DNA of 64,000 nucleotides, taken from positions 24,782 to 88,781 of IMG/VR virus record IMGVR_UViG_2843857367_000001; one strand, given 5' to 3'. This document shows positions 5,222 through 40,501 of the stretch, piece after piece; positions within the stretch are counted from its first letter, which is position 1; the number at the start of each line of letters is the position of its first letter. Under the pieces are notes generated by a model, which saw only the letters and a program-made list of their open reading frames with translations, was not told the DNA's origin and did no database searches. The DNA is from a virus (lineage: Duplodnaviria > Caudoviricetes). Made by a program: the position numbers and the translations under genes.

Positions 5222-5249
5222 TTCTGCGGCCCCTTCGCTTTGGTTTCGG

Positions 5250-5496
5250 GCGTCCCACGGCGTACCGGCTGAACGTCCCACTTATCTTTTTGAGAACACT
5301 CGATAAAAACAGAGACGGGACGCGCGGGACGCATGGGACGCACCTGTGGCGTCGTGCGCTCCCGCATGTGCGCCCCCGCATGGGGCCGAGGTCGCGTCCC
5401 ATGCGTCCCGGTGTCCCATGCCCGGCTCAAAGCCCGATCAGTCATGGCTTTCACCGTGGGACGCAGGGCGGGACGCGCGGTCGCCTGGGGCGTCCC
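5250..5496. repeat. Iteron-like GGGACGC/GCGTCCC cluster (putative origin)
   Basis: About 10 exact or near copies in both orientations around an AT-rich tract at 5281-5312. Confidence 0.7.
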
Positions 5497-23222: not shown

Positions 23223-24395
23223 AGCCGCCGTCCTGCCACCCTTAGACGGTTGTTCTACCTCGTCTTTATCGCATCTCTCGGTGGTTGCTCCGGGACTATT
23301 CCGGGAGAGCGCCGCAAGCCCCGCCTTCACGTCGTCCTCGATCGCATGGGCGTAAACCATCGTCGACTTGATGTCGGCATGGCCCAGGAGGCGCTGGGCC
23401 AGACGCAGGTTGCCGGTCTCCCGCAGGATCTGCATGCCGCTGTGGTGGCGCAGGTCATGGATGCCTCGCAGGCCCTTGGCGTCCTTCAGTCCAGATCGCT
23501 TCATCGCCCGCCGCATGGCGATAGCGGCGCCAGAAGGCTTCAGCGCCTTGAGGATGACCTTGCCGGCAGGCCCTGGTAGGCGCCGCTCGCGATACCAGAC
23601 CGTCTCCAGCCTCGCGGCCCGCGCCCGGCCGAGGCGCGCAGAAAGCATGGCCGCATCCTCGGGCAGCAGAGGGATAACGTGGTCGTCGCCGCCCTTTCGG
23701 TCCCGGAGGCGGACGCGGGCGTTGTTGATGTCAGCCACGTCGAGGTCGTCGAGCGAGAAGAACAGCTCCGACAGGCGGCAACCGTAGCGGGCGGCGAACC
23801 TGATCAGGTCGTGCCAATGCGGCAGGACCTCGGCCTCGACCCGCTCCAGCTCATCCCCGACAAGCTCCTTGGGCCGAGGCTTCGGCTCCTTCAGCCGCAG
23901 GGCCTCCCAGTCGATCTCGGGCAGCCTGGCGCCCCATGCCTTCCGTGCGCGGTTCAAGATCGGCCGGAGAGTGTCGATCATGTCCCGGTTCACCGTCGAG
24001 TTGGACGGCAGGTATTCCTTCGCGCCCTTGGCCTTCGACTTGACGATGCCCTGGCCGCGGCGGCGCTCAATGGCCGTGGCGATGTGGTTGGTGGTGATGT
24101 CGCAGATGCGCGTCCCTGCCCCCACGACGGCCATCATGCGCTCGATCCGGGCTTCCAGACGGGCGCCGCCCTTCAGCGTCGTGCCGCGCTCGGCCCACCA
24201 ACGGCCGGCAGCCTCGTCCAGCGTCATCTGAGACGCGTCGTCCAGTTCGCCGGTCGCGGCCTTGGTGCGAATGCGTCGCTCGACTTCCTCGGCCTTGCGC
24301 TTCGTCTCCACGCCCGTCGAGCCGTGGTAGCGTCTGCCCTTGTACTGGAAGTCGTAGGCCCAGTACCGGCTGTTCTTCGGCAGATAGACGGACAT
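23217..24395 (-). CDS. Tyrosine integrase
   Basis: YGCRLSE, RK, HDLRH, LLGHADIKSTMVYAH. Confidence 0.95.
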   Translation of the reverse strand: MSVYLPKNSRYWAYDFQYKGRRYHGSTGVETKRKAEEVERRIRTKAATGELDDASQMTLDEAAGRWWAERGTTLKGGARLEARIERMMAVVGAGTRICDITTNHIATAIERRRGQGIVKSKAKGAKEYLPSNSTVNRDMIDTLRPILNRARKAWGARLPEIDWEALRLKEPKPRPKELVGDELERVEAEVLPHWHDLIRFAARYGCRLSELFFSLDDLDVADINNARVRLRDRKGGDDHVIPLLPEDAAMLSARLGRARAARLETVWYRERRLPGPAGKVILKALKPSGAAIAMRRAMKRSGLKDAKGLRGIHDLRHHSGMQILRETGNLRLAQRLLGHADIKSTMVYAHAIEDDVKAGLAALSRNSPGATTERCDKDEVEQPSKGGRTAAS

Positions 24396-24688
24396 CAGGG
24401 GTCGACGTGATAGACGCGCGCATGGGGTATGCCTGGAGGGCAAACCTTGTCCTCAATCCTGTAGATCGCCTCGCGCAGCGGCTGAACGGGATCGGTGGCG
24501 CTCAGGATCTGGGCCAGCGGAACGACTTCCTCTTCCAGCTTCTCGTCATCTGCGCCGATGGGCGGGAAGCCGCCTTTGATGATCACCGCTTCTGCGGTTT
24601 GCCGGATAGGCCTGAAGGCTACGGCTGAATTCTTCATCTGGATCTCAGCGTCGTAGATCGCGCCCTTGATAAGATGGTCGTCAGTCAT
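24395..24688 (-). CDS. Hypothetical protein
   Basis: TGATG-coupled to the integrase. Confidence 0.55.
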   Translation of the reverse strand: MTDDHLIKGAIYDAEIQMKNSAVAFRPIRQTAEAVIIKGGFPPIGADDEKLEEEVVPLAQILSATDPVQPLREAIYRIEDKVCPPGIPHARVYHVDP

Positions 24689-26558: not shown

Positions 26559-26902
26559 GCGCCAGCCCTCGCCAGTTCATGCAATCCGACCTTCATGCGG
26601 ACCTCGGCCACGACCTTGGCGCGCACGGCGCCGTCGAACTCTTCGAGGTCGATGACGTGGCGCGAGTAGGCGGGGTTGTCGTGCCAGATTTTCACTTCGC
26701 GGAAAGGCGCGACAGGGATGCGCTCGGCCCGGTAGGGCGTCCCGCCTTCCCCTGTGAAGTCGAGGATGTAGACGCCCTCGCCGTCGTAGCGCGCGGCGGA
26801 CTGAACCATCAGGAAGTCACCGGTGCGCAGCGTTGGCTGCATCACGTCGCCGCGGATTTGAAACGGGCGGATGGCGGGGTGTTGAAAGACGGCAGGGGTC
26901 AT
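26555..26902 (-). CDS. Standalone S24/LexA C-terminal-like domain, catalytic residues absent
   Basis: IRGDVMQPTLRTGD, DGEGVYI, DNPAY. Confidence 0.75.
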   Translation of the reverse strand: MTPAVFQHPAIRPFQIRGDVMQPTLRTGDFLMVQSAARYDGEGVYILDFTGEGGTPYRAERIPVAPFREVKIWHDNPAYSRHVIDLEEFDGAVRAKVVAEVRMKVGLHELARAGA

Positions 26903-28140
26903 CGCGCCATCGCCTTTTCGGAGACGCCGTCCTGCTCGTAACGAGACCAGGCATAGGCCTTTAGGTGCAGCGCTTCAGCCTTAGTCAGGGCGTTGTAGAT
27001 CGCGGTCGCGTCGGCCAGCCCGCTCGGCCGGTCCATGCCAATCCCGAAGCCCAGCCCACTATCGTGGAACGTGACCTGGCATCCGGTCTGCGCTTCAACC
27101 TGAGCGACCCAATCAGCCGCCCATGCCTGCCGCGCGGCCAGGTGTTCAGTTAGGGCCTCGACCTGATGACGATCCAACTGCGCGAAACGGTCGCTGAGCG
27201 CCTTAATCTCGGGGCGGTCGTCGCCGGCGCGGTGCAGGATGTCGGGGCCGAAAGCTGGGTTAAACAGCTTGAAGCGCATCCCCTGAGCGTAGGCTTCAAG
27301 GGCAAATTGTTCGGGATGGAAGCCTTCTAGTCCGACAGGCAGGCCGACCGCTGCTCGCATACCATCGCGCAGTTGAGCGCGGACCTCGGCGCGCCGATCC
27401 AGGTCGTTCTTCGTGACCGTGTAAGCGGTGCTGTCAGCATACACTCGGACCATCAGAGCGTCAGTGGACGGGGCGTACCAGCTCGGCTGTTCCCGCTGAC
27501 GCTGAATGGCGAGGTGCTGACGCTGGAAATAGGCCTTAACCTCCTCTCGGTCCCAGTCGGACAGAGCGGCGAAAGCTGCAGCACACTTCTCCTCACCGGG
27601 GCCCGTGAACGTCAGTCCCTCGGTTTCCGCGTCCCAGTGGAAGCGAGCCCGCGTACCTGCCGTCGTTCCCTCAAGCCATCGCCGCGCGACAAATCGTACC
27701 GGCTCCGCGTCGGCCAACTCCTTAGACGCACCGGACAGGAAGGCGGCGTCTTGATAGAGGGCGATCAGCGCGCGGTCTTCGTACGAAGCGCTCATGAGGT
27801 GGGATAGGTAAGCCGGATTGTCCGGGCTGGCGCCTTTCCAATAGCGTCCGCCGAGGAAGCTCTTGATAAAGATGCGTCCCTTTTCGGCGATTTCACCGAC
27901 AGTCGCGGCGCGGGTTTGCAGCAGCTTTTCGAGAGCATCGTCCACCGCCTGATCGGCGACTTCGACGCCCTCTTTATCGCCCGCCGCCTCGCGCTTGTCG
28001 CGGTGGTCACAGACTAGGCGCCAAGCTGCCACGGCGAGTTCGAATGGCGTTTTGTCGGCTGCTCGCACCGCGCGTGCGGCAGCGGTAACGGTGTCCTGGG
28101 TGGCGGTGGTGGCCGGAGCCAGATCGGCAGCGCTGGTCAT
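26899..28140 (-). CDS. Hypothetical protein
   Basis: Start MTSAADLA coupled to the upstream gene. Confidence 0.6.
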   Translation of the reverse strand: MTSAADLAPATTATQDTVTAAARAVRAADKTPFELAVAAWRLVCDHRDKREAAGDKEGVEVADQAVDDALEKLLQTRAATVGEIAEKGRIFIKSFLGGRYWKGASPDNPAYLSHLMSASYEDRALIALYQDAAFLSGASKELADAEPVRFVARRWLEGTTAGTRARFHWDAETEGLTFTGPGEEKCAAAFAALSDWDREEVKAYFQRQHLAIQRQREQPSWYAPSTDALMVRVYADSTAYTVTKNDLDRRAEVRAQLRDGMRAAVGLPVGLEGFHPEQFALEAYAQGMRFKLFNPAFGPDILHRAGDDRPEIKALSDRFAQLDRHQVEALTEHLAARQAWAADWVAQVEAQTGCQVTFHDSGLGFGIGMDRPSGLADATAIYNALTKAEALHLKAYAWSRYEQDGVSEKAMAR

Positions 28141-28517
28141 TGGCGCGCTCCGATCCAGACGGCGTTGTCGTCGTACTCTTCCCGCGCAGCCAGCGTCGCC
28201 AAACGGGCGGTCGCTGCCATGTCCGGATCGGCGTTCCAGAAGAAGGCCGGCGCCATGACACCGCAGACCCGGCAGTGGACGGTGTCGTCGGTGAAGTCGA
28301 CCGGCTCGCCTTTGACGTCGCGGATCACCGCCCCGTCGTCGTCGAACAGGAACTGCACCTCCGAACCTGCCGGATCGACGGACAGCTGTTCGGCCTCGCC
28401 GCAGCAGCGGCAGGGCTTCAGATCGGTCAGCGCGACGGGCGGCTGACGAAAAACTTGCTGTTGGGCATCGGCTAAAACAGCCGAGGGCCGCCGTGTATCT
28501 GCATGCGCCATGGACAA
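28137..28517 (-). CDS. Lar-like zinc-ribbon protein
   Basis: LKPCRCCG...VHCRVCG...WN. Confidence 0.6.
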   Translation of the reverse strand: MSMAHADTRRPSAVLADAQQQVFRQPPVALTDLKPCRCCGEAEQLSVDPAGSEVQFLFDDDGAVIRDVKGEPVDFTDDTVHCRVCGVMAPAFFWNADPDMAATARLATLAAREEYDDNAVWIGARQ

Positions 28518-28543
28518 GCTCCATCAAAGAGGATGGAGCAATG

Positions 28544-28584
28544 ATGCACGAATGCAACGAACCCGTCAATGCACGAATGCAACG
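28544..28584 (-). promoter_or_regulatory. Leftward promoter with two identical operators
   Basis: ATGCACGAATGCAACG at 28544 and 28569; TTGACG-N17-CATCAT on the minus strand. Confidence 0.65.
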
Positions 28585-29352
28585 CTAATCGTCAAATGGC
28601 GTGGGCATTGGCCTGGGCTGACGCATTCGCGCCTCGCGTGGCTGGTAGGAAGCTAGGACTACGCCCAGAATTTCGAACTGATATCGGTGGGCTTTTTCCT
28701 CATCCCCTGCTGCATCCGGGTCGAAATCTTGGGCTGGAAGGGCTCTGCATACCAGCTCTCGCCCCTCCCCCTCCGAAGACGGGCGGTACTCCCAAAGAGA
28801 CAGCTGGTACTTGGACCCACCGAAAAAACTAACAATCCTCCGACACAAAAAAACGTCCTGATCGTATATCGTCTCCTCTTTGTGTGATCCCACAACAAGA
28901 AACGACCCTGCTTTATAGGACGGATCCGACACATCATCGGCAACCTCATAGATCGCAATCGATTTGCTTAACCAACTGGAGTCAAATAGCGAGATCGATC
29001 GCCCAGTCTGAGGTTTTTGCAGAAGGGTGTCACGCCAGGCACCCCACTCTACTGCGCCCGCAACGGGTATCGGCTCGCCGGTAACAAGCGCAAGGCGAGT
29101 GGCCGTCCTGCTAACATCGTCCAGCGTGCTCCAATATTCGTCGGCCGACTCGTTCCTCATCTTTAGTGCGAGCTGCATCAATTTCTGCAGGGTCGCCGAA
29201 GATGGCGTGAAGGGCGAGTCCTCGTCCAGTGCCCGGGTAAGCGTGCTGGGGGATAGACCGGCCTCACGAGCAGTTTGAGATGCTGACCACCCCTGTTGCT
29301 CCATGATGGACCGGATGATCTGCGCGGTCTGATCCCGCAATTCATTAGACAT
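28585..29352 (-). CDS. CI-like repressor with degenerate S24 domain
   Basis: WSASQTAREAGLSPSTLTR HTH; IPVAGAVEWG; lacks GDSM and catalytic K. Confidence 0.8.
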   Translation of the reverse strand: MSNELRDQTAQIIRSIMEQQGWSASQTAREAGLSPSTLTRALDEDSPFTPSSATLQKLMQLALKMRNESADEYWSTLDDVSRTATRLALVTGEPIPVAGAVEWGAWRDTLLQKPQTGRSISLFDSSWLSKSIAIYEVADDVSDPSYKAGSFLVVGSHKEETIYDQDVFLCRRIVSFFGGSKYQLSLWEYRPSSEGEGRELVCRALPAQDFDPDAAGDEEKAHRYQFEILGVVLASYQPREARMRQPRPMPTPFDD

Positions 29353-29409
29353 ATAGGCCTCGCGTTGCAGCGGTGACGAAGATAGCGGCCCCGACAGCGT
29401 TGCGCTCGA

Positions 29410-29440
29410 TGCAATCATGCACTATCGTTGCATTCATGCA
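29410..29440. promoter_or_regulatory. OR-like operators TGCA-N4-TGCA
   Basis: TGCAATCATGCA and CGTTGCATTCATGCA match the 28544 repeat. Confidence 0.6.
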
Positions 29441-29636
29441 CGATCCCGTTGTCGCTTTCGAAGATGCCTGCAGGGCTCGAGGAGTGCCGCTTTTGGAGGC
29501 GCTCAAAGAGGCCAGCGTTGATCGCTCCACATGGTGGCGCTGGAAGTCTGGAAGAACTGGGCCTCGCCACGACACCCTTCAGCGCCTGCATGCGGGTCTT
29601 TCTAGGCTCGCGAATCCAGAAGGGGCGTCAGCCTGA
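29436..29636 (+). CDS. Cro-like HTH protein
   Basis: ASVDRSTWWRWKSGRTGP; divergent from the repressor. Confidence 0.8.
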   Translation: MHDPVVAFEDACRARGVPLLEALKEASVDRSTWWRWKSGRTGPRHDTLQRLHAGLSRLANPEGASA

Positions 29637-29880
29637 TGCAGCGCGCCCCTCGCCTTCTCCCGCTGCTCCTGCGCCAGACGCCACCACTTCGGGTCTCGCG
29701 TCTCCCTCGCGGCAACACTGCAAGCTCCCGCCGCAACTCCATGGCGGATCGCCCGCAAGATTTCTGCGGACGGCTCCGGTCCGCTGTTCGCCCTGTCCAA
29801 CATCTCAACCTCCAATCCTGTGAGGCGACATTCGGCCAACGCCGGTCGTCCGTCACCTTGCACGCACAAGGCTCTTGGCA

Positions 29881-30324
29881 ATGAACGACTTCTCTCCCGC
29901 TCTCCTGAAGGCGCACTTCGGCCAGTTGGTCGACGCTGTCGGCACGCAGGAAGCCGCCGCCGCATTCCTCGGCGTCAGCCGTCAGCGCGTCGGCCAGTTG
30001 ATCAGCACGGCGAACAACGACCTGCCGACCTGGGGGCAGGTGTGGAAGCTGGAAAAGGTGACGGGACAATCGCTGGTCTTCGGCGCGTTCAGCCGCATGA
30101 CGGCGGGCGAAGAGGCTCACACCGGCGCCCTAACCGCTGCAGTCGAAAGCACCGCGACGGCCACCCGCGCCCTTCAGGCCGTCCATGCGGCGAAAGCTGA
30201 CGGCATCATCGAGCCGCACGAGGTTGAAGCTGTGCGGGATGCGGCGCGCGACAACCTGATCGCCGCCCAGCGCCAATACGACGAGAGCATGCGCTTGCGC
30301 TCGACTGCGGGAGCTGATGCATGA
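29881..30324 (+). CDS. CII-like phage regulator
   Basis: N-terminal HTH, ADGIIEPHE motif, position after Cro. Confidence 0.6.
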   Translation: MNDFSPALLKAHFGQLVDAVGTQEAAAAFLGVSRQRVGQLISTANNDLPTWGQVWKLEKVTGQSLVFGAFSRMTAGEEAHTGALTAAVESTATATRALQAVHAAKADGIIEPHEVEAVRDAARDNLIAAQRQYDESMRLRSTAGADA

Positions 30325-31331
30325 TCCAGATCGACCGGATCACGACCTTCGACCGCGTCCGTCAGGCGGACCGAAAGCAGGTTGAAGCCCTGGCCGAAAG
30401 CATCCGCGAGGTCGGGCTGCTCAATCCCATCGCGGTGGCGCCGGATGGCGATGGCTATGCCCTGATCGCCGGGATGCACCGGCTGGAAGCCGCGCGCCTG
30501 CTCGGCTGGGCCGAAATCCCGGCCACCGTGCTGGCGTTGGATCAGCACCGCCGGATCATCGCCGAGTGCGACGAGAACCTGTGCGCGCCGTCCCTGACGC
30601 CCGCCGAACGCGCTGAGTTCACCCGTCGTCGGAAGGCTGCCTACGAGGCGCTGCACCCGGAGACCGTTCGGGAGGCGACGCTAAAGAGGGGCGAGAATCT
30701 CCCGAGTCGCCAAGTTGGCGAAACGGGACCAACTCCCCGCTTCACCGCCGATACCGCCGCCGCAACGGGCCAGTCCGAGCGGGCCGTTCAGCGCGACGCC
30801 GAGCGGGGCGAGAAGGTCTCTGACGAAGCGCTGGCGCTGATCAAGGGCACGCGCCTCGACACCGGTCGCTACCTCGACAGCATTAAGAACCTGTCGGCAG
30901 AGGATCAGGTGGCGAAGGTGGAGGCGGATCTGGCGCCGCCATCGGAAGCCGTCGAAAAACGGGACACGCCACCCGCTGAGCCTGCCGAGCCCATCGACCC
31001 CGCCGAAGCCAAGGCCCGGCGCGAAATCGCCCAGCTTCCCGACGAGGCCAAGGTCGACGAGATCGTCGGCCTACGGGCTGAAGTCATCGACCTGCGCAAA
31101 GCGGTCAAGGAACATAAGGCCAACATCGCCAAGCTGAAGACGCAGCTGAAAGGCCACGAGGGCGACAAGGACGACACGATCCGGGCGATGCAAAGGAAGC
31201 TCGATCACGCGAACAGCGAGATGTTCCGCGCGAAGGAAGACGCCGCCCGAGAGCTGCGCCGAAGCCACGTGCTGAAGAAGGAGAACGCGAAGCTCAAAGC
31301 CGAGATCGAGAACCAGGTGTTCCAGCTTTGA
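30321..31331 (+). CDS. ParB N-terminal domain protein
   Basis: LAESIREVGLLNPI, IAGMHRLEA, DENL. Confidence 0.85.
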   Translation: MIQIDRITTFDRVRQADRKQVEALAESIREVGLLNPIAVAPDGDGYALIAGMHRLEAARLLGWAEIPATVLALDQHRRIIAECDENLCAPSLTPAERAEFTRRRKAAYEALHPETVREATLKRGENLPSRQVGETGPTPRFTADTAAATGQSERAVQRDAERGEKVSDEALALIKGTRLDTGRYLDSIKNLSAEDQVAKVEADLAPPSEAVEKRDTPPAEPAEPIDPAEAKARREIAQLPDEAKVDEIVGLRAEVIDLRKAVKEHKANIAKLKTQLKGHEGDKDDTIRAMQRKLDHANSEMFRAKEDAARELRRSHVLKKENAKLKAEIENQVFQL

Positions 31332-31579
31332 GCATCGTCGAGCGCATCAGAGCCCATGGCGGCGAGGTCGGAAGGGACCGCTGGAACGTCAGCCTCCGCA
31401 AGGGACGGCTGGACGCGACGGCGCTTGCCTGGATCGCGAAGCACAGGGCCCAGCTGATGCGCGAGATCTGGCCTGAATACGACGCCTTCGAAGAGCGCGC
31501 AGCCATCATCGAATACGACGGTGGTCTGCCACGAGCTGAGGCCGAGCGCGCCGCATACCGGGAGGTGTGCGGATGCTGA
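31328..31579 (+). CDS. Conserved small phage replication-region protein
   Basis: FEERAAIIEYDGGLPRAEAE motif. Confidence 0.65.
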   Translation: MSIVERIRAHGGEVGRDRWNVSLRKGRLDATALAWIAKHRAQLMREIWPEYDAFEERAAIIEYDGGLPRAEAERAAYREVCGC

Positions 31580-33141
31580 CGTTCGTCGACGCCAAGGAGA
31601 TCGCCCTGAGACCTTATCAGGGATCGGTGGTCGAGCGGTTGCGCGAGAAAATCCGGCAGCGCATCAAGCGCCTGATCCTGTGCGCCACAACGGGCGCCGG
31701 GAAGACGCTGATATCAGCCTATCTTATCAAGGAGGCGGCGAAGAAGGGCAGCTATGTGCTGTTCATCGTCGACCGCGTCGCACTGGTCGAGCAGACAAGC
31801 GCCGTCTTCGACGAGTACGGCATCCACCACGGCATCGTGCAAGGTATCCACCAACGGTGGGCGCCGCGCGAGAACGTGCAGGTCTGTTCGGCCCAGACGC
31901 TCGCCCGCCGCAGCCTGCCACGCGACCCCGACCTGATCGTCGTCGACGAAGCCCACTGTCAGTTCAAGGCCACGATCGAGTTCATGAACCGCTATCCCAA
32001 CGCGGTGAAGATCGGTCTGACCGCAACGCCCTTCACCAAGGGGATGGGCCAGCACTGGGACGGCATGGTCAACGCGGTTTCGACCCGGGAGTTGATCAAC
32101 GACGGGTTTCTGGTCGAGCCGAAAATCTACGTCGCCCGCAGCCCTGACGATACTGAACTGAGCCGGAACAGCTTCGGCGAATTCAGCGACAGGAGCGCCG
32201 CCTCGGCTGGGATCAAGATCGTCGGGGACGTGGTTCAGGAATGGATCGCCAAGACCCGCGAGCATTTCGGCGGGCCAGTGAAAACCATCGTCTTCAGCCC
32301 GACGGTCGAGCATGGCCGAGAGCTGTGCGCCGCCTTTGCGGCCGCCGGGTTCAACTTCCAGCAGATCAGCTATCTGGACGACGACGACGAACGCCTGGCG
32401 CGGATTGCCGAGTTCCGCCGTCTCGACAGCCTGATCCACGGCCTGATCTCCTGCGGCGTTCTGACTAAGGGGTTCGACGTGCCCGACGTGCGGGTTGGGA
32501 TCTCCTGCAAGCCGTACCGCAAGAGCCTGTCCAGCCACATGCAGGAGATCGGCCGCGTGATGCGTTCGCATCCAGGCAAGGACGTAGCCCTTTGGCTCGA
32601 CCATTCCGGCAATATCGAGCGGTTCGCCTTGGACATGTACGATGTCTGGGAGAACGGCGCCGGCGAACTGGACAAGGCCGAAAAGCGGGACAGCGTCGCC
32701 CGCGAGCGCAACGAGAAGGCCCGCGAGAAGGTAGTCTGCCCGGAATGCTCCGGTGCCCTGCGCGGCACGACCTGCACGGCCTGCGGCTGGGAGAAGCCAG
32801 CGCGTTCAGGCATCCAGGCTGTCGAGGGCGAACTGCGCGAGTTCGATGCGGGCGCAATGGACATGGAGGCACGCCCAGGCCTACGCGCCGAGTGCCTGAA
32901 GAACCCCAAGGCGGTCTACAATGCCGCCATCTGCTACAGCATCGACCAGAGCCGCCATGGCGACTGTGAGGCCGCCCGGAAGCGCGCCTGGGCGATTTGG
33001 AAAGGGATCTATCCCGGCAGTAAGCCGCCCTATCACTGGTTCAGCATGGCGCCAGTCGCGCCCGACGCTGGGGCGTATGCGCTGGCGGACCGCGAAGTTC
33101 TGCGCTTCCGCAAGCTGAACAAAACGCGGAGGGTGAAATGA
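31573..33141 (+). CDS. SF2 DEAH-box helicase
   Basis: LRPYQ, TGAGKT, DEAH, TAT, GFDVP, QEIGRVMR, CPEC zinc finger. Confidence 0.93.
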   Translation: MLTFVDAKEIALRPYQGSVVERLREKIRQRIKRLILCATTGAGKTLISAYLIKEAAKKGSYVLFIVDRVALVEQTSAVFDEYGIHHGIVQGIHQRWAPRENVQVCSAQTLARRSLPRDPDLIVVDEAHCQFKATIEFMNRYPNAVKIGLTATPFTKGMGQHWDGMVNAVSTRELINDGFLVEPKIYVARSPDDTELSRNSFGEFSDRSAASAGIKIVGDVVQEWIAKTREHFGGPVKTIVFSPTVEHGRELCAAFAAAGFNFQQISYLDDDDERLARIAEFRRLDSLIHGLISCGVLTKGFDVPDVRVGISCKPYRKSLSSHMQEIGRVMRSHPGKDVALWLDHSGNIERFALDMYDVWENGAGELDKAEKRDSVARERNEKAREKVVCPECSGALRGTTCTACGWEKPARSGIQAVEGELREFDAGAMDMEARPGLRAECLKNPKAVYNAAICYSIDQSRHGDCEAARKRAWAIWKGIYPGSKPPYHWFSMAPVAPDAGAYALADREVLRFRKLNKTRRVK

Positions 33142-34058
33142 CCCTGTCGCTGACTGAAGCCCTGCATCAGGCCTGTGCGGTGGTGGGCATCGAGCCCCCC
33201 AAACGCCGCCTCTCCCCCGGCCATTGGGTGCGCACGGATACCAAGGGCAAGAACGGCCGGGACGACGCCGCCGTCCTGATCTTCGACGATGAGAATGGCG
33301 GCATGGTGTGGAATCACCAGACCGGCGCCAACCACCGCTTCAGCATTCTCGGATCGGGTCCGGTTCACCGCGATCCCGAGGTTGAGCGTCGCGCCCGCCG
33401 CCGAGAAGCGGCCCGTCTCGCCGAGCAACAGGAGGTCGAGCGCATCTGCGCGGCCATCGTGCGCGGCTGCCGGCAGGACAAGCATCCCTATCTGGAGAAG
33501 AAAGGCTTCCCAGATGAGTTGGGTCTGGTCTGCGACGTGCTCAGCAAGTTCTTCCCTGAGACGCCCTTCGGCGAAGCCCTGGCCAAGGCTCTGCCGGGCA
33601 TCGGCCCCTTCCTGATCGTCCCCGGCCGCATCGGCGGCAAGGTTACGACGGTGCAGTTCATCACCGCCGACGGGGCGAAGAAGAACATCCTGCGCGGAGC
33701 CCAGGGCGGCGCCAGCCACCGGATAGCTTCTGGGCGCGATACGTGGGTGTGCGAGGGCATCGCCACGGCGATGAGCATCAGAGCCGCGCTGCGCCTTCTG
33801 GGCGTTTCTGCGACGGTCCTGAGCGCCTTCTCGGCATCCAACGTCGAGAAGGTGGCTGCGGCCATCCCCGGCGCTCGCATCGCGGCCGATCACGACGCTC
33901 CGAACGCGCATCTGGAAGGCAAGGGCGCCGGAGAGTTCTACGCACGACGCTCGGGCTGCGCCTGGGTTATGCCGCCTGCTATCGGTGACTTCAACGACAT
34001 GCATGTGGAGCATGGCCTGCGCGCCGTCGCGCTCCATCTCAGGGAGGCGCTGGGATGA
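33138..34058 (+). CDS. TOPRIM-domain primase
   Basis: HPYLEKKG, VCEGIATA, AADHD, GDFND. Confidence 0.88.
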   Translation: MTLSLTEALHQACAVVGIEPPKRRLSPGHWVRTDTKGKNGRDDAAVLIFDDENGGMVWNHQTGANHRFSILGSGPVHRDPEVERRARRREAARLAEQQEVERICAAIVRGCRQDKHPYLEKKGFPDELGLVCDVLSKFFPETPFGEALAKALPGIGPFLIVPGRIGGKVTTVQFITADGAKKNILRGAQGGASHRIASGRDTWVCEGIATAMSIRAALRLLGVSATVLSAFSASNVEKVAAAIPGARIAADHDAPNAHLEGKGAGEFYARRSGCAWVMPPAIGDFNDMHVEHGLRAVALHLREALG

Positions 34059-34432
34059 AGAGAGTATCGTCCAGGGCTGATCGCATCCGCGTCTTCCACG
34101 AGCGCCTTCGGTCTCTCGGGTTTGCCAGCTATCACGAATACCTCCGGAGCCCGCACTGGCACGATGTTCGTCGCCGATACTGGGCCAGCAAGCTTGCCAA
34201 GAAGGCCTGCTGCGCCGGATGCGGCGCAGGGACGGCGCTTGCGCTTCACCACAGGACTTACAAGCGGATCGGACAGGAACGCCTGATGGATCTGATTCTG
34301 GTCTGCCGGAGCTGTCATTCGGACATCCACGACTTCGAGGACCGGGTTGGGGCTCACCCTTGGCGTGCGACCAACAAGACCTTGCGGACCAAGCGCAAAT
34401 CCCTCGGCCTTAGCGGGAGGGACGTCATCTGA
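34055..34432 (+). CDS. Small HNH endonuclease
   Basis: YLRSPHW, CAGC, LHHRTY, VCRSCHSDIH. Confidence 0.8.
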   Translation: MKRVSSRADRIRVFHERLRSLGFASYHEYLRSPHWHDVRRRYWASKLAKKACCAGCGAGTALALHHRTYKRIGQERLMDLILVCRSCHSDIHDFEDRVGAHPWRATNKTLRTKRKSLGLSGRDVI

Positions 34433-34440
34433 TGAAGCGA

Positions 34441-34760
34441 GCATCCCTCTCACGCTCAAAGAGAGAGGGGCCATTCCGACCGGTCGGTTTCGAGGAGAGA
34501 CGGCGGCGGCGGATATGGGAAGGCCCACCGTGGGGCAGGAACCTGGGCAAGCGCAGTCCTAAAGAGAGAAGCGCGGTTCCCGGCGCGTCGCAATGGCGCC
34601 GACATAGTAGCTCTCAACGAGACGGGGGATGCGACCCCACCGTTTCGGCCCAAGGCGGCGGCCCGGCTCCGGCCAGCAAGACCACCACGGGCATGGGGAC
34701 TAGCCGTCGGGGAGTAAATCCTCGGGGGCTAGTCGTCCCATGCCCGGACAACAACCCTCT
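34441..34760 (+). ncRNA. Candidate structured non-coding element (RNA or ssDNA origin)
   Basis: At least five stem-loops, including a ~24-bp interrupted hairpin at 34688-34746; strand assumed. Confidence 0.5.
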
Positions 34761-34845
34761 CCATCCAGCAACTACCTTTCAGAAAGAGGAACAGTAGCGA
34801 TGCAGCACGCGAACGACGAACCGCCTGACCGGAGCTTGTGATCTG

Positions 34846-35052
34846 ATGGTCGAACGCATCTCCCTCGCTCAACAGCACGCCGTCAACGAGCAGCGGCGCA
34901 TGGGGCGGACGGACCGTCAGGCCGAGAAGATCGTCGGTCTGCCGAGCGGCATCCTCTCTCGCCCCTTCATCGTGGTCGATGACCGCGACCCGCGCCCGCA
35001 GCGGGGCCCAGGCATCAGCCCCCGCACCCTTTACCGATACACCCTGTTCTGA
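34846..35052 (+). CDS. Hypothetical protein
   Basis: 68-aa ORF with host-like codon use. Confidence 0.45.
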   Translation: MVERISLAQQHAVNEQRRMGRTDRQAEKIVGLPSGILSRPFIVVDDRDPRPQRGPGISPRTLYRYTLF

Positions 35053-35065
35053 AAGGCCCCTCCCC

Positions 35066-35848
35066 ATGGGCAAAGCCACCAAACCCCGCCTCAACCCCCG
35101 ATCCAAGGGCGGCCGCCCCCGTCAGCCGGGCGAGCGCACCAAGAGCGGACGCCTGAAGCACAGCCCGAACGAGCGCGTCCTGCAGATGCGGTCGGTCTTC
35201 GGCGTCGACCATATCGGTCAGGCGTTCTCACCCATCCAGATCGCGTTCAAGAACGGCTGGCTGTCAGAGGCCGACTGCCGGGCAGCGGCAGAGTTCGCAT
35301 CGCTTCACGCCGCCGCCGGTATGGGCCGCAGCAGCATCAGCCTGTCGGCCGGCATGGAGGTGAAGCCCGGCGCAGATACCTCGGGAGACGTGACGGCCGC
35401 GTCGTTCTTCGCCACGCTGCCGGACCGCGAGGTCGCCGAGATCTGGGACGCCGTGTTCACCGACGACGGTGATCGCGCCCTGAACCGTGAAGAGGCGGCA
35501 GCCCGCGCCATGAAGCGCTGGAAGCTGGCCTGCGCCGCCATGACGCCGGAGCAGCGCGAGGAGGTCCATAACGTCTGCATCCTCGACAGTTTCCCGCAAT
35601 GGATCATCCAGCGCGCTCACGGGCACATGGAAACGAGCTGGGAGAGGAAGCGCGACCTGCTGATCGGTGGTCTGCGCGCCGTGCGGGCAGAGCTTCATCC
35701 GCCTAGGGGAAAACCGGAGCAGCGGACAGTGGCGCCCGTCGCGTCGGTCTCGCCCGCGCGTGCCCAGGTCGAGCGCACGGTCTACGTGAGTGAGGATGGC
35801 GTGCCGTTGCTGGAGGTCGAGCGTGTCGTACGGCGTGGGGCGGGTTGA
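35066..35848 (+). CDS. DUF6456/GafZ-like late transcription regulator
   Basis: SPIQIAFKNGWLSEADCRAAAEF...VHNVC...GLRAV; occupies the Q position. Confidence 0.55.
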   Translation: MGKATKPRLNPRSKGGRPRQPGERTKSGRLKHSPNERVLQMRSVFGVDHIGQAFSPIQIAFKNGWLSEADCRAAAEFASLHAAAGMGRSSISLSAGMEVKPGADTSGDVTAASFFATLPDREVAEIWDAVFTDDGDRALNREEAAARAMKRWKLACAAMTPEQREEVHNVCILDSFPQWIIQRAHGHMETSWERKRDLLIGGLRAVRAELHPPRGKPEQRTVAPVASVSPARAQVERTVYVSEDGVPLLEVERVVRRGAG

Positions 35849-35899
35849 CCAGCCGCCTCGAGATCGGAGAACATTACATGAACTTCAGAGTGAGTCGCC

Positions 35900-36346
35900 A
35901 TGGTCCGTCTGTTCGATATCCCCGGCATCCCCGCTATCGAGAACCGCACCAGGCTCAACGCCCTCACAGGCGTCCGTGAGGATCACGATCTTGATCGGAT
36001 GATCCTTGAGCTCATTGCAGAGGTGTTCGCGCTGAAGCCCGACTGCGACCCGTACGACGTGGGTTTTTATATTGAAGACGACGATAGCGACGAAGATGCC
36101 ATAACGGCCTGGCGTCAGGATGGGTGGGATGTCACTGGTCCTGACGGCAACATTCTGGAATGCCTAGACAGGTTCGCCTGGAACTTGGCGGCGGCTGGTG
36201 AGGGGCTCACACAGCGCAGTATGATCGAGCTCGAGGCGCTTGCCTGGGGGGAGAGGGCTGCGGTCAAGCCAAAGACGGACCCTCGCGAAAGGACGCGGAA
36301 CCAGCAATTCTTAAACTTCGGCGCTCGCCGTCGACGTGCGGCTTGA
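35900..36346 (+). CDS. Hypothetical acidic protein
   Basis: 148-aa ORF. Confidence 0.6.
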   Translation: MVRLFDIPGIPAIENRTRLNALTGVREDHDLDRMILELIAEVFALKPDCDPYDVGFYIEDDDSDEDAITAWRQDGWDVTGPDGNILECLDRFAWNLAAAGEGLTQRSMIELEALAWGERAAVKPKTDPRERTRNQQFLNFGARRRRAA

Positions 36347-36371
36347 CAGGCGGATGGAATAGGAAGATAAG
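36343..36371 (+). promoter_or_regulatory. Putative late promoter (pR'-like)
   Basis: TTGACA-N17-GATAAG. Confidence 0.55.
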
Positions 36372-36413
36372 CCTAGGAACAGATATGTCAGGGTGGCACG
36401 AAATCCTGACCGA

Positions 36414-36452
36414 GAGACCCCGGAGCATCGCGCGGCCGGGGTCTTTTCGTTT
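36414..36452 (+). terminator. Intrinsic terminator (tR'-like)
   Basis: AGACCCCGG/CCGGGGTCT stem followed by T-rich tail. Confidence 0.75.
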
Positions 36453-36562
36453 CGGGCTCCCTTAAGGGCGAGAGGACGGCAGGCTTAGGGTTGGGAGTTC
36501 CCAGGACGGTTGACGAACCGGACGACTCTGTTGAACGCTGCTACCTCAAATAGTGAGGCGCA

Positions 36563-36829
36563 ATGTTCGAGATCGGCAAATCATACACCTTCCGCTTCAA
36601 CGAAGACGGAGGCTGGACGCTATCGACCCTTAAGGTTGTTGGCGTAGATGGAGGGCTGCTCAAGCTGCGGCGCCACGGCCAAGCAGAGTTCATTCTCAAC
36701 ACCGCCTCAACCAGCTTTCACACGGCTGATCCCGTTGATCATGACGCCGATGAAGCTCCTTCCCCCATCCGCGTCGTTTTGACCGGCCAGGATGGCGAGA
36801 AGAGTGAATTGTTGATCGGCGGAAACTAG
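36563..36829 (+). CDS. Small beta-rich hypothetical protein (moron)
   Basis: GAGG RBS; lower GC. Confidence 0.65.
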   Translation: MFEIGKSYTFRFNEDGGWTLSTLKVVGVDGGLLKLRRHGQAEFILNTASTSFHTADPVDHDADEAPSPIRVVLTGQDGEKSELLIGGN

Positions 36830-36923
36830 GCGCCTGCCCCGAGATATCCCGGCGAGCAAGGTCAGCGTCAGGCGCTCCGCTCGGACCGCCTGACGCTCTT
36901 CGAGTTATTTTTTACGCACCGGA

Positions 36924-37559
36924 ATGGACGACGGTCGAGGCGATTGGCTGGGACGGTTGTTCCCGAACTGGCCAGGGTCGCTTCGCCGAGTTGGGGGCGG
37001 CGGTGGCGGTGGTGGCGACAGGGGGTTCTTAGCCATGAACGTTCCTGAAACAGAAGCTGCTATTGCGGCAGAGGTGGTTTACGAAGCGAACGGCGTTGTC
37101 TCAGACTTCATCGTCGCGCAAGCACAGGAGCGCCTTAGAGCGCTTCAAGTGGCAGCCCACGCGCTTGACCAGCGCGTGACACAGGTGGCGGCATTCCAGT
37201 TCGCCGCTGCCGCATTCGCCGCGGGGGCCGCGGCGTCAGATGCACTGCGGTTCTTCGCTAGTCTGAGTGCGATCGCTTTCGTCGTCGGCGGGGTAGTCGC
37301 TTTCCGAGGCATCCGATCTGACCCGATCCATCTGCCGGGCATTGCCTCGGCTTGGTGGAAGGGATCTCTCGCCGTCGATTCTTTCAAGATTGATACAGCA
37401 CGCGCTTGGGCTGCTGGCGTTCTTCAGAACGCTATCGAACAGGTGGATAACGAGAACTGCGAGCGCGCTCGGCATCTGAACTTGAGCCTGAACTATGCCG
37501 TCGGCGGGGCTGTGCTGGTCGCCATCGGCTTCGCACTGAGGCTCTTCGGGTTGTCATAG
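36924..37559 (+). CDS. Three-TM membrane protein (moron); alternative start 37035
   Basis: Two adjacent TM segments plus a C-terminal TM. Confidence 0.65.
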   Translation: MDDGRGDWLGRLFPNWPGSLRRVGGGGGGGGDRGFLAMNVPETEAAIAAEVVYEANGVVSDFIVAQAQERLRALQVAAHALDQRVTQVAAFQFAAAAFAAGAAASDALRFFASLSAIAFVVGGVVAFRGIRSDPIHLPGIASAWWKGSLAVDSFKIDTARAWAAGVLQNAIEQVDNENCERARHLNLSLNYAVGGAVLVAIGFALRLFGLS

Positions 37560-37566
37560 GTCGCCG

Positions 37567-37887
37567 ATGGCCCGTCGTCCTGACCACATCGCCTCCCAAG
37601 GCACCCAGCGCCTAAGGGGCCGCAGAGGCGTAGAGCAACGCAAGCGCCGCCTCGCCGCCGAGCCCCTGTGCAGGGACTGCATGGCCAAGGGGATCATCAC
37701 CGCCTCGACGGTGCCCGACCACATCATCCCCCTGAGCCAGAACGGCCCAGACACTGACGACAACATCCGCTGCCTCTGCGCGGACTGCCACACCATCAGG
37801 ACAAGAGAGCAGTTCGGCCACGCCCAGGTCAGCCCGGTCGGCGTCGACGGCCGCCCCCTCGATCCGAAGCACCCTTGGAACCGTTAA
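37567..37887 (+). CDS. Packaging-associated HNH endonuclease (HK97 gp74-like)
   Basis: EPLCRDC, DHIIP, NIRCLCADCH, GVDGRPLDPKHPW. Confidence 0.88.
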   Translation: MARRPDHIASQGTQRLRGRRGVEQRKRRLAAEPLCRDCMAKGIITASTVPDHIIPLSQNGPDTDDNIRCLCADCHTIRTREQFGHAQVSPVGVDGRPLDPKHPWNR

Positions 37888-38504
37888 TCCTCCGTATCTT
37901 CTCTAAACTCGGCTACCTCGCCAGGCAGCTCAAAGACGTATTTCAAGAACATCTCGGTGAACAACCGAAGAGGCTTGGCGTCGTCCTCAGTAAAGTCGTC
38001 AGGATCGTGTAGGGCCTCGTTGCCTTCAATCCGCACCCTATCAGCCCACGACCACATGTCGGGCGTGATGTGGTGGTTATTGTGCAGCCACTCTAAGCGC
38101 TTGAAGAAAGTTCCCTTGGGGATGCCCTCAAACGTCTTGGTGGCGATATCGAGCGCAGATCTGTACATCGCGACAGCGGCGTTCCAGCTGCGCCGTTGGT
38201 ACGCATCTTCGCCTTCGAGGAATCTCTTCGCGACCGAAGCTGGCGTATGCAGCGGTGCCATCGGCTCGATGCGCTCTGGCCAGAAAGCAGTAACGTTGAA
38301 CTCCGGCTCTATAACACCGTTGAACTCTCTTGGTTTTGAGCCGCGCCCCACATTGTCGTAGCATTCTAGCGTCACTGGAAGCCTGCACGCGCCGCAGGTG
38401 GCCGCGGCCACCCACGTTCGCGAGCCACGAGTATCATTCCATACGATTGAAAAGGTTGAGTGGTCCGCAGGGCAGTGCGGACAGCTTCTGACAAGGACGC
38501 CCAT
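37884..38504 (-). CDS. Zinc-ribbon plus DUF4145 (HEPN-like) protein
   Basis: CPHC/CGAC, AAVAMYRSALD, RIEGNEALH (Rx4-6H-like). Confidence 0.8.
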   Translation of the reverse strand: MGVLVRSCPHCPADHSTFSIVWNDTRGSRTWVAAATCGACRLPVTLECYDNVGRGSKPREFNGVIEPEFNVTAFWPERIEPMAPLHTPASVAKRFLEGEDAYQRRSWNAAVAMYRSALDIATKTFEGIPKGTFFKRLEWLHNNHHITPDMWSWADRVRIEGNEALHDPDDFTEDDAKPLRLFTEMFLKYVFELPGEVAEFREDTED

Positions 38505-38699
38505 TATGAACTCCAATATCTTGCCTGCCGCCAAGGCAGAGCGGGCTATGCGTGGCATTGAGGCGACGACGCCGGGCGAGACGACGGCCAGAATCGTTCA
38601 GGCATTCAACCGCATGAATGGCCAAGGTGAGCAGAGAGCGTTTGTCGCTGCAATAGCTTCGCGGCTCGCAATGAGGATCTGCGAGCTAACCTGACCCAT

Positions 38700-38775
38700 T
38701 GGGGGGGGCGGGGCAAAGTCTGGAGCCTTGGCCTCGGACACCGGCGGCCAAGGTGCATTCGCACTGAAAGCAGTT
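38700..38775 (+). other. Putative cos region of prophage 2
   Basis: G-run GGGGGGGGCGGGGCAAAGTCTGG directly upstream of terS. Confidence 0.4.
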
Positions 38776-39054
38776 TCGAACTAAAAAGTTGGGAGCACCC
38801 CCGTAGGGGGTGATGCTGCATGAACGTAGTGCCGGGGACGGGCGACATCGTGCCGGAGCCGCACTGGCGCATGCTCCTGACGGACGATCTGGAGATCGCA
38901 GCAGCGGCCGAGCACTGGCGCCGCATCTCATCGGAGATGAAGGAGCGGGACATCCTGTCCCCCTCGAACGGTCATGCCGTTCAACGCCTCTGACGTGACC
39001 CCCTGAAACTCCTCCAAGAATAGCTAGAGTCCGCCCTAACGAAGGACGGACAGA

Positions 39055-39321
39055 ATGAAGCGATCAAGGTTCACGGAAGAGCAGATCATCGGGATTCTGC
39101 GGGAGCAGGAGGCCGGCATGACGACGGCGGAGGTGTGTCGGCGTCACGGGGTCAGCTCGGCGACCTTTTACAAATGGAAGGCCAAGTTCGGCGGGCTCGA
39201 CGTGTCGGAGGCTCGGCGGCTGAAGACGCTTGAAGACGAGAACGCCCGGCTCAAGCGAATGTTGGCGGACGCGATGCTGGACAACGTGGCCCTGAAGGAC
39301 CTGCTGGGAAAAAAGTGGTGA
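39055..39321 (+). CDS. IS3 transposase OrfA
   Basis: [12 protein letters not shown]...; A AAA AAG slip site at 39309-39315. Confidence 0.95.
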
Positions 39322-40244
39322 CGCCCGCCGGCTGGCGCGAGGCGGCTGGTCATCTGCAAGCCGCCTACGAGATGAGCGAAAGGCGGGCGTGCCGTGTTCT
39401 AGGCGTCGATCGGACGAGCGTACGCTATCAGGCGACGCGCCCGGACGACGGCGCCCTGCGCGACCGGCTGAGGGCCCTCGCCCAGGAGCGTCGCCGGTTC
39501 GGCTACCGCCGCCTGCACGTCCTACTGCGGCGCGAGGGCCATGCGGTCAACAAGAAGCGGGTTCAGAGGATCTATCGTGAGGAACGGCTGACGGTGCGCC
39601 GGCGCGGCGGGCGGAAGCGAGCAATGGGCACGCGGCGACCGCTGGACCTGCCGCTGGTGGCCAACCAGCGCTGGTCGCTGGACTTCGTCTCTGACCAGAT
39701 GACGGACGGGCGGCGCTTCCGCATCCTGACGGTGATCGACAACTGCACCCGCGAGTGCCTGGCGTTGGTGGCCGACACCTCGCTGTCGGGCGCTCGGGTG
39801 GTGCGAGAGTTGGACGCCGTCATCCGGCAGCGGGGCCGACCCGACACCATCGTCAGCGACAACGGCACGGAATACACCTCGAACGCCGTCCTGGCGTGGG
39901 CCGACGACACCGGCGTCGGCTGGCATTACATCGCGCCAGGCAAGCCACAGCAGAACGGCTTCAATGAGAGCTTCAACGGGCGCCTGCGTGACGAATTGCT
40001 GAACGAGACGCTGTTCCGCTCCCTGCCGCATGCCCGCTCGGTGCTGGAGGCCTGGCGGCGTGACTACAATGAGCGGCGACCGCACTCGAAGCTCGGCTGG
40101 CTGACGCCGCAGGCCTACGCGCAAGCCCTTGCTGGAAACGCCGGGCGGCCTGCTGCGCTGGTTGACGGCTGCGCAGGCCGCCCTATTGCCAACCCAACCA
40201 ATCTCTACCCAGATCAACCTCGGACTCTCGTTATGGCTGGATGA
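39315..40244 (+). CDS. IS3 transposase OrfB (DDE), via -1 frameshift
   Basis: [26 protein letters not shown]. Confidence 0.95.
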
Positions 40245-40501
40245 GAAACGGGGGTCACGTCACCTCGTGCTGTCCTACGTGATCTACGACCGCTGCTCGC
40301 GGGAGGTCGCTGAGAACGGCGCGGTGCTGAAGCCGAAACGTGGCAATCCGAAAGCCATCGCCCGCCTCAGCCCGCACTTCCAGGCGATGCGGGAGGCGGC
40401 GTCGGATGCGGCAGCGTTGGAGGCTGAACTTGGCCTGTCGCCGCGCCGTCGATCGGCAGCTGCGAAGGTCGTGAAGAAGGCGCGCGCTGCGCGAGCGTCT
40501 G

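Follow-up and report, generated by a model that had tools for sequence, protein, structure and literature searches.

An undescribed structured RNA at the end of the helicase–primase gene cluster in temperate siphophages of the Alphaproteobacteria

Which kind of element closes the replication gene cluster of a temperate phage in which no gene for a replication initiator is recognised? The question is raised by a stretch of 64,000 nucleotides (the window), positions 24,782 to 88,781 of the IMG/VR virus record IMGVR_UViG_2843857367_000001 (88.8 kb, GC content about 65%), a temperate siphophage or prophage whose relatives carrying host names in the databases come from Brevundimonas. Directly after its genes for an SF2 helicase, a Toprim primase-like protein and a 125-amino-acid (aa) HNH endonuclease, the initial annotation, made from the sequence alone, had noticed about 320 nt packed with potential stems. 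It had proposed an undescribed structured RNA or single-stranded DNA element, acting as an RNA-primed or R-loop origin or else as a partner or guide of the HNH enzyme. The structured stretch is real and somewhat longer, about 340 nt (34434–34775), and it is an RNA family absent from Rfam and of an undescribed kind. As to its role, we tentatively favour a cis-acting RNA that governs the expression of distal genes.

The first relative came from a blastn search of phage records, where Paracoccus phage Shpa is 74.7% identical to the window over 235 nt. In this phage the element stands directly after the primase gene, there is no HNH gene, and compensatory changes are already visible in the pairwise alignment. 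Other copies were collected from the loci around relatives of the primase and from scans of viral contigs, species genomes and metagenomes with an invariant RNA motif, the motif scans making no use of the protein context. The sets comprised 28 distinct copies at first and 34 finally. RNAalifold, applied to 16 copies, predicted 79 pairs, of which 25 have compensatory changes.

The curated core structure has 51 pairs in eight helices. As a control, the 3' partners were slid by 1–3 columns, and 500 shuffles were made. In a structure-blind MAFFT alignment 97.7% of cells are paired, compared to 35–44% in the slid controls; 20 pairs are changed on both sides (3–8 when slid), and there are 93 such cells (4–17 when slid). 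None of the 500 shuffles reached any of the observed pairing measures. The covariance-model alignment (41 matches, 34 of them distinct) favours the structure, yet the structure-blind alignment concurs with it: 97.9% of cells are paired as against 36–45%, and double changes occur in 20 of the 51 core pairs (2–9 when slid) and in 119 cells (7–24 when slid); here too, the observed values were reached in none of 500 shuffles. The covariance model, R1, represents a 251-position core of the 329-position element. The 5' third, containing a pseudoknot and the helix P2, is outside the model and was judged from the MAFFT alignments and with a script. The strong covariation thus bears out the proposed fold.

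G·U cells number 129 and A·C cells six, hence the plus strand is the one that folds, as the G–T pairs in the stems had been taken to indicate; the same pairs are 97.7% paired on the plus strand and 88.5% paired if the minus strand is folded. This asymmetry alone fits an RNA or a plus-sense single-stranded DNA alike, while the UNCG- and GNRA-type loops, on general grounds, lean towards RNA. More than 100 bases of the element are invariant, many of them unpaired. Rfam 15 at gathering scores has no match in the whole window, and at E values up to 10 the segment 34000–35300 has four chance-level matches, none of them within the element. In the literature on structured RNAs after primase genes in alphaproteobacterial phages, on new phage RNA motifs and on phage Shpa, supplements not covered, no account of the element was found. 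The Shpa genome paper, in the portion available, mentions the helicase and the primase and not the region of the element.

The element is crossed by a 121-codon open reading frame (ORF), 34432–34797, which starts at the HNH stop codon, and a conserved protein there would have spoken against an RNA. The GC content of this ORF at the three codon positions is 0.63/0.64/0.64, while the neighbouring genes have 0.75–0.84 at position 3. Conservation across 28 aligned copies is equally flat (0.728/0.726/0.719). Copies diverged by 2–4% already differ by 1-nt indels, distant copies differ from the window by 8–14 frame-breaking indels, and nearly all indels among the copies have lengths that are not multiples of three. 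There is no match to Pfam or to PHROGs. On these grounds a protein gene was rejected. In phage Shpa, two annotated hypothetical proteins, gp47 and gp48 (L001:4965-5144 and 5184-5360), lie inside the element; almost certainly neither these two nor the ORFs annotated over it in metagenomes are genes.

The fold consists of a 5' H-type pseudoknot and at least seven more helices (Table 1). Five of the six stems listed in the initial annotation are supported by comparison: CCCTCTC/GAGAGGG is stem 2 (S2) of the pseudoknot, GGAACC/GGTTCC is P4, CGGCGC/GCGCCG is P5, CGAGACGG/CCGTTTCG is P6, and the hairpin 34688–34746 is P7. The sixth, the palindrome CCGACCGGTCGG, is not kept as a hairpin; its bases form the long-range pairing with 34504–34512 that makes up P2. 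The helix with the best support is P6. No variation occurs in P4a, in a part of P7 or in the UCCG mini-hairpin, which are therefore uninformative on covariation. The sequence GGCTCCGGCCAGCAAG is nearly invariant. A pairing between CUCUC in the invariant joining strand AGUAGCUCUCA and GAGAG in the P4a loop is conceivable, both sides being invariant; an all-against-all scan of column covariation for extra pseudoknots was swamped by phylogenetic correlation. A frame starting at an invariant AUG inside P7 is not a gene, since its peptides range in length from 2 to over 145 residues and the frames differ between copies. Since the frame also differs between copies across the C-rich 3' tail, the tail is conserved as RNA and not as a peptide.

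In the pseudoknot, the 3–7 bases just 5' of S2 pair with the first bases of the S2 loop, forming stem 1 (S1). In a fixed register S1 has on average 4.38 bp over 21 distinct 5' ends, with at least 4 bp in 19 of the 21, as against 1.85 ± 0.26 bp (maximum 2.76) in 2000 shuffles of the upstream bases. It covaries: GAGC/GCUC in the window, and UCGAGAG/CUCUCGA, CGAAAG/CUUUCG, ACGUG/CACGU, GAGAA/UUCUC and GAGU/ACUC elsewhere. One further copy, L049, does not have the 5' hairpin. The pseudoknot begins 0–10 nt past the stop codon of the upstream gene, therefore a terminating ribosome must unfold it. A recoding signal, be it for stop read-through or for a −1 frameshift, was considered and rejected: the pseudoknot abuts the stop codon (0–10 nt, as against the required 5–9 nt or so), and no downstream frame is conserved.

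In a group of temperate siphophages of the Alphaproteobacteria, the helicase(-primase) cluster ends with the element. The viral and genome loci number 32: in 24 of them at most 18 nt separate the end of the primase ORF from the element, in two (the same contig, found twice) the HNH gene intervenes, a 260-nt gap is present in one, three have no primase match, and two are too short for a judgement. Of the 19 metagenome loci found by the motif, 18 contain the element, and the match in L092 is a chance one, the element being absent. Primase is directly upstream in 11 of the 18, six have a helicase without a primase match, and one is an island of the kind described below; in one locus without a primase match, as in L044, a 131-aa ORF takes the place of the primase. 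The element is on the same strand as its neighbours in all loci, starts 0–18 nt after the upstream stop codon and ends 20–60 nt before the next start codon. Hosts identified by name are Brevundimonas (four records), Henriciella, a Rhodobacterales metagenome-assembled genome (MAG) and Aliisedimentitalea, with Paracoccus added by phage Shpa. Each of the five genomes searched has a single copy. Under strict filters, 151 genomes sampled within the family to which one Brevundimonas host belongs include two with the element; such a sporadic spread would be the pattern of a prophage-borne element.

Not all phages with a close primase have this RNA. In five loci a different conserved non-coding stretch, about 460 nt long, directly follows the primase gene; we call the two RNAs class 1 and class 2. 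Class 2 is strongly folded as well: from four distinct sequences 107 pairs are predicted, and 17 of these are compensatory; it has no match in Rfam, and the class 1 model R1 matches neither the class 2 loci nor 12 loci with distant primases. The two classes have no detectable homology, the short common words CAAGTAGC and CCAGC being visible by eye only. Class 2 also occurs beside a primase of only 52% identity. Since all 20 viral loci whose primase is at least 55% identical carry class 1 (15 loci) or class 2 (five loci), the RNA slot is a core feature of these phages. The distant primase relatives (27–34% identity, L022–L033) have convergent genes after the primase and are uninformative on the RNA.

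The exchange of one class for the other can be delimited precisely. Up to the primase stop codon at 34058, and again from 34829, ahead of the gene orf68, two sister phages, L002 and L003, align collinearly with the window at 82–94% nucleotide identity. The block in between contains the HNH gene and the class 1 RNA in the window and the class 2 RNA in L002 and L003. The proteins on both sides of this swap (helicase, primase, orf68) are 82–100% identical, the helicase and the primase 94–97%. As near-identical proteins adjoin unrelated RNAs, the helicase and primase would not recognise the sequence of this RNA and, judged by these comparisons, the RNA does not require any one sequence of the adjoining genes.

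Class 1 is also found outside the phage cluster, in two small integrase islands, one in the Rhodobacterales MAG (L061:105-3239) and the other in Aliisedimentitalea (L064/L067; L067:7034-10848), the latter adjoining a tRNA-Pro gene (L067:6065-6141). The order is integrase, a 235–243-aa ORF, a small ORF, the RNA and an ORF of about 175 aa, with neither a helicase nor a primase gene. The two small ORFs flanking the RNA are 52% and 43% identical between the islands, hence the arrangement is old and not a random remnant. The islands could be satellites or stable remnants. Defence-like genes are situated nearby, an AAA_15/AAA_21 ATPase (L061:5125-6873) and a T5orf172 protein (L067:11484-12680, minus strand), and none of nine island and downstream proteins matched a PADLOC defence model.

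The proposed link to the HNH gene did not stand. Among the 28 first-collected distinct copies, HNH is between the primase and the RNA in only two, the window and L009 (one contig, L009/L054/L063), and it is beside the RNA in none of the 20 loci of a further set that included metagenome loci; the same phage backbone also carries the RNA without this gene. As the HNH gene is missing from most RNA loci, HNH is not the partner of the RNA. In HEARO/IscB systems, a structured RNA, the omega-RNA, lies beside an HNH-domain gene, as in the window. Unlike those, the protein here is 125 aa long, has no RuvC domain or bridge helix and is absent from most loci, and there is no match to the HEARO model of Rfam; a guide RNA of this kind was rejected, as the obligate co-occurrence of RNA and HNH is not seen. 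The gene is best read as a free-standing, homing-type sporadic insertion in an insertion-prone region, the replication cluster being a hot spot for selfish insertions. Other inserts were seen there as well. In L041 (3563–4515) and L065 (865–1871) the helicase gene is split by about 950–1000 nt; is this an intein, or an intron with an endonuclease? In L039 (11075–11671) and L084 (9364–9960) about 600 nt are inserted between the helicase and primase genes.

The status of the slot as a core feature, the replaceability of the RNA by an unrelated one and its capture by the islands together point to an essential RNA-based step in the life of these phages. The candidate steps are an early-to-late switch controlled in the absence of a lambda-type N or Q, and a start of replication that needs no initiator. 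Such a step is outside the textbooks for temperate phages of GC-rich Alphaproteobacteria. What can be used today is a well-supported new RNA family and the corrected annotation of gp47, gp48 and the metagenome ORFs.

The genes following the RNA bear on the choice. They belong to at least five families unrelated by BLAST. In the window, the 260-aa protein and, in other loci, the commonest other family (233 aa; L010:3491-4192) have their best structural matches, assessed with VIA-align, to sigma region 4, with Z 5–6.1, 60–75 residues aligned and root-mean-square deviation 2.5–4, in a range that the tool deems possibly generic. Foldseek found no match to the model of the 260-aa protein at E 0.001 or better, and the hhalign comparison of the two families was not significant. 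From their models, both proteins may be late-gene regulators. In L007, the downstream gene has a NusG domain (Pfam, 1.3e-11) and matches the PHROG "transcription antiterminator" (1.9e-13); the NusG domain is weaker in L044 and L080, and in L019 a small helix-turn-helix (HTH) protein follows. Transcription regulators may thus follow the RNA. Scans for sigma-70 promoters and intrinsic terminators, the only consensus types covered, gave background levels around the element in the window, in the Shpa region and in L011. In phage Shpa, a single orientation is shared by all genes downstream of the RNA as far as the right end and by the terminase and late genes at the left end.

The reading that we prefer, as a tentative one, is that of a cis-acting RNA governing distal gene expression, most likely by making the host RNA polymerase resistant to termination. 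The RNA would be made within the long rightward early transcript and act on it in cis; co-transcription is inferred from the tight gene junctions and the fact that no sigma-70 promoter or intrinsic terminator was found. Its target would be the host expression machinery, and not a phage protein encoded alongside, since neighbours that are 85–97% identical flank either RNA class. Transcription or expression would thereby be able to continue into the distal genes, first the regulators immediately downstream, NusG-like or sigma-4-like, and then the late genes of the same orientation. The RNA might work as a processive antiterminator or leader, in the manner of conAn2, EAR or put, and, more speculatively, the pseudoknot abutting the stop codon would couple RNA folding to the passage of the last ribosome. 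A cis-acting RNA of this kind would explain the independence from the neighbouring proteins, the replacement by an unrelated RNA, the place before regulator-like and late genes, and the use by islands for genes of their own. Positionally, the element is upstream of the genes that it would serve and on their strand in all loci.

Among the closest known counterparts is conAn2 of pLS20 and other Gram-positive conjugative plasmids. The conAn2 elements are 260–600 bp long, act in cis and are 30–40% identical between plasmids (PMC8191782). Like the phage element, conAn2 is a large structured RNA of a mobile element inside a long operon and lies beside a transcription-factor gene; its poor sequence conservation despite a common function parallels the exchange of class 1 for class 2. 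On the other hand, conAn2 follows its protein gene at the operon head in Firmicutes hosts, whereas the RNA considered here follows replication genes about 4–5 kb into the operon; the likeness is one of description, no similarity of sequence or structure being seen, and antitermination is in our case proposed. EAR of the Bacillus eps operon and put of phage HK022 are, in the same source (PMC8191782), RNA-only, cis-acting folded antiterminators acting on host RNA polymerase. The former lies between genes in mid-operon, and the latter is phage-borne, as is our element.

Several observations weigh against antitermination. No convincing terminators to override were found downstream, the scan being one for intrinsic terminators and sigma-70 promoters. 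In the window, two minus-strand genes (37884–38953) and an insertion sequence (IS) separate the RNA from the terminase genes, hence transcription running straight on into the late genes is not apparent there. The sigma-4-like matches are weak (Z 5–6, Foldseek E above 1) and could reflect a generic HTH, and NusG-like neighbours are present in a minority of loci. Both put and EAR are far smaller than an element of about 340 nt, and put is close to its promoter. Invariance at over 100 bases points to a more demanding function, for example catalysis or a specific ribonucleoprotein (RNP), and the constant place after the replication genes fits an origin equally well.

The demanding function leads to another possible reading, that of a processed trans-acting RNA, cut from the operon transcript and being a ribozyme, the RNA of an RNP, or a molecule binding or diverting a host factor or a defence system. 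The pseudoknot at the 5' end and the long P7 would protect the ends, and the host target could be RNA polymerase, Hfq, an RNase or the ribosome. Large RNAs so conserved in structure are rare and have repeatedly proved to be ribozymes, riboswitches or RNP cores. The size of the element, its many invariant unpaired bases, the single-stranded CCAGCAA present twice and the stable UNCG and GNRA loops are typical of RNAs whose functions are demanding. Its independence from neighbouring genes fits a self-contained module. Also in favour of a trans-acting RNA are the single copy in each of the five genomes and its retention in two small integrase islands that have no phage replication genes and carry defence-like cargo. 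However, no promoter or terminator of its own was found, the conserved 3' tail has no protecting hairpin, no known ribozyme family matches in Rfam, and a host-directed accessory RNA is not expected at one fixed place in 20 of 20 related phages. ROOL and GOLLD are likewise large ornate prophage-borne RNAs, with different classes in like positions. Cryo-electron microscopy work on RNAs of this type is reported in 10.1101/2024.12.08.627333. The phage element differs from ROOL and GOLLD in having no Rfam match, being smaller, standing after replication genes and not near tRNAs, and being confined to Alphaproteobacteria in the data searched.

An RNA-primed or R-loop origin, the role originally put forward, now seems doubtful. 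Here the transcript would stay hybridised or become the primer, and the SF2 helicase and the primase would need no sequence-specific initiator to assemble forks; the small islands, as satellites, would borrow this machinery. In the origins of ColE1 (RNA II) and the R-loop origins of T4, the fold of a transcript or its hybrid with the template does start replication without such an initiator, and SF2 helicases act on R-loops and D-loops elsewhere (PriA, UvsW). An origin would agree with the position of the element, which always closes the helicase(-primase) cluster on its 3' side, and with the presence of the RNA in islands without helicase or primase; the interchange of unrelated RNAs would be tolerable if no protein reads the sequence. 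It would also agree with the lack of an initiator and iterons. None of the 15 window ORFs scanned (29.4–37.9 kb) was recognised as belonging to a gpO/DnaC-like or other initiator family, though several of these ORFs match nothing at all, and calling the module initiator-less thus relies solely on missing family matches; the claim of no iterons stood, with two-copy repeat families only and no array of three or more direct repeats in 28500–37000.

Against an origin, the element is not G-rich and no clusters of G stand out (the GC skew is about +0.03 in class 1 and class 2 alike, the range for the element being −0.02 to +0.08), and no AT-rich unwinding stretch is near, the GC content of 34001–35000 being 0.64. 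Primase is missing beside the RNA in six metagenome loci and L044. Origins normally co-vary with replication proteins, whereas here proteins 94–97% identical flank unrelated RNAs. The comparison with ColE1 is further weakened by the lack of a G-rich hybrid-forming stretch and of an antisense partner like RNA I: no promoter-like site matching the sigma-70 consensus was found on the minus strand within the element, and the strand asymmetry argues against a folded minus-strand RNA. Besides, ColE1 is a plasmid, and the element is a phage feature. The most specific version is quite unlikely, namely that the two unrelated folded RNAs are interchangeable initiator-free origins, folding behind the last ribosome and opening or priming the template for the PriA/UvsW-like SF2 helicase and the Toprim primase, with the RNA-only islands being satellites that steal this machinery.

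A selfish homing cassette, in which the RNA and HNH would form one mobile unit (for example, a degenerate group I-like intron) with no phage function, is improbable. HNH does abut the RNA in the window, the block of the two is swapped as a cassette, and the region is an insertion hot spot. Still, of the 28 distinct copies collected first, 26 do not have HNH, none of the models for group I and group II introns gives a match even with E values up to 10, and the primase ORF is complete before the element, being aligned over residues 1–306, so that there is no interrupted exon; strong purifying selection and the presence in every relative argue for a function. Finally, we give hardly any credence to a 121-aa protein gene, even though long ORFs cross the element here and in other loci, or to a guide or partner RNA of the HNH enzyme, in view of the flat codon-position signals, the frame-breaking indels, the lack of a family match and the absence of HNH from most loci.

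Table 1. Coordinates of the RNA, its parts and the surrounding genes (positions in the window unless a locus is given)
Feature	Position	Strand	Evidence or remark
Class 1 structured RNA, whole element, ~340 nt	34434–34775	+	multiple alignments; RNAalifold; no Rfam match
5' H-type pseudoknot	34439–34470	+	S1 GAGC 34439–42 / GCUC 34454–57; S2 CCCUCUC 34445–51 / GAGAGGG 34463–69
P2 long-range helix	34476–34512	+	covarying pairs, e.g. CG:9/UA:17, GC:22/AU:5/UA:1
P3 hairpin, 4 bp	34523–34536	+	98.5% of cells paired; variation one-sided
P4 GGAAC/GGUUC, encloses P4a GCGC/GCGC and an invariant 16-nt purine-rich loop	34538–34580	+	P4: double changes in 3/5 pairs; P4a without any variation
P5 hairpin	34581–34601	+	100% paired; double changes in 2/6 pairs
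Invariant joining strand AGUAGCUCUCA	34607–34617	+	invariant columns in alignments
P6 hairpin (CGAGACGG/CCGTTTCG)	34618–34647	+	double changes in 9/10 pairs; 97.1% paired
GGC-UCCG-GCC mini-hairpin (UNCG-type tetraloop), then first CCAGCAA copy	34665–34679	+	nearly invariant; 99% paired
P7 long interrupted hairpin, variable tip	34688–34746	+	19 pairs, 6 with double changes; 97–98% paired
Conserved C-rich 3' tail, ends with second CCAGCAA	34747–34771	+	conservation stops here
Class 2 RNA	L003:4919-5400; L002:2092-2590; L012:4925-5385; L070:3180-3655 (−)
Integrase	23217–24443	−
556-aa ORF between integrase and repressor-like gene	26899–28569	−	no PHROG match
Repressor-like HTH gene	28585–29418	−
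CII-like gene, heads the rightward cluster	29875–30324
ParB-like gene (ParB_N)	30321–31331	+	PF02195 9.5e-11; phrog_3264 3.7e-36
orf83, 83 aa, overlaps both neighbours	31328–31579	+	GC by codon position 0.68/0.51/0.79; weak PHROG match
SF2 helicase (ResIII/DEAD and Helicase_C)	31567–33141	+	Pfam 1.1e-24; phrog_16 3.6e-77
Toprim primase-like gene, 306 aa	33138–34058	+	Toprim_3 7.1e-7; phrog_2249 DNA primase 5.3e-29
125-aa HNH endonuclease gene	34055–34432	+	PF01844 6.2e-5; phrog_8060 2.2e-13
13-codon upstream ORF MQHANDEPPDRSL	34800–34841	+	good Shine-Dalgarno; outside the RNA; stops 4 nt before orf68 start
orf68, first conserved gene after the cassette	34846–35052	+	GC at codon position 3 0.84; weak Xre-like HTH match 0.036
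260-aa protein, C-terminal HTH weakly sigma-region-4-like	35066–35848	+	AlphaFold model, mean predicted local confidence (pLDDT) 74
Second HNH gene, 106 aa	37567–37887	+	phrog_2323 2.7e-17; 93% nucleotide identity in sister phage L003
IS transposase	39315–40244		phrog_157 2.1e-62

The short ORF MQHANDEPPDRSL between the RNA and orf68 is a candidate coupling leader for the latter; a similar peptide (xxxNDEPPDxSL) is found in L004, L006 and L009.

Upstream of the RNA, the Pfam and PHROG matches and the overlapping stop and start codons that join the genes from the ParB-like one to HNH confirm the coupled SF2 helicase, Toprim primase and HNH genes recognised at the outset. The codon-position GC of orf83 looks coding, and its counterpart is annotated in phage Shpa as gp44. 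By sequence, the nearest solved structure to the helicase is RadD (PDB 6jde, 1.2e-17), and no solved relative of the primase-like protein was found in this way. Further to the left, the 556-aa ORF could be prophage cargo, for instance a defence or exclusion gene. Where it meets the repressor-like gene, at 28544–28584, there is a perfect 16-nt direct repeat, two copies of ATGCACGAATGCAACG with spacing 25, a candidate operator pair. A search of the window for tRNA and tmRNA genes found none.

To the right, the second HNH gene is probably the terminase-associated HNH of HK97-like packaging, comparable to Shpa gp1 beside the small terminase. It is followed further on by the small and large terminase, portal, protease, HK97-type capsid and tail genes. 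The segment 38977–40264, holding the IS transposase, is missing from sister phage L003. The IS is situated just upstream of, or overlapping, the small terminase ORF (40129–40530), and its insertion may have inactivated or decoupled the expression of the packaging genes.

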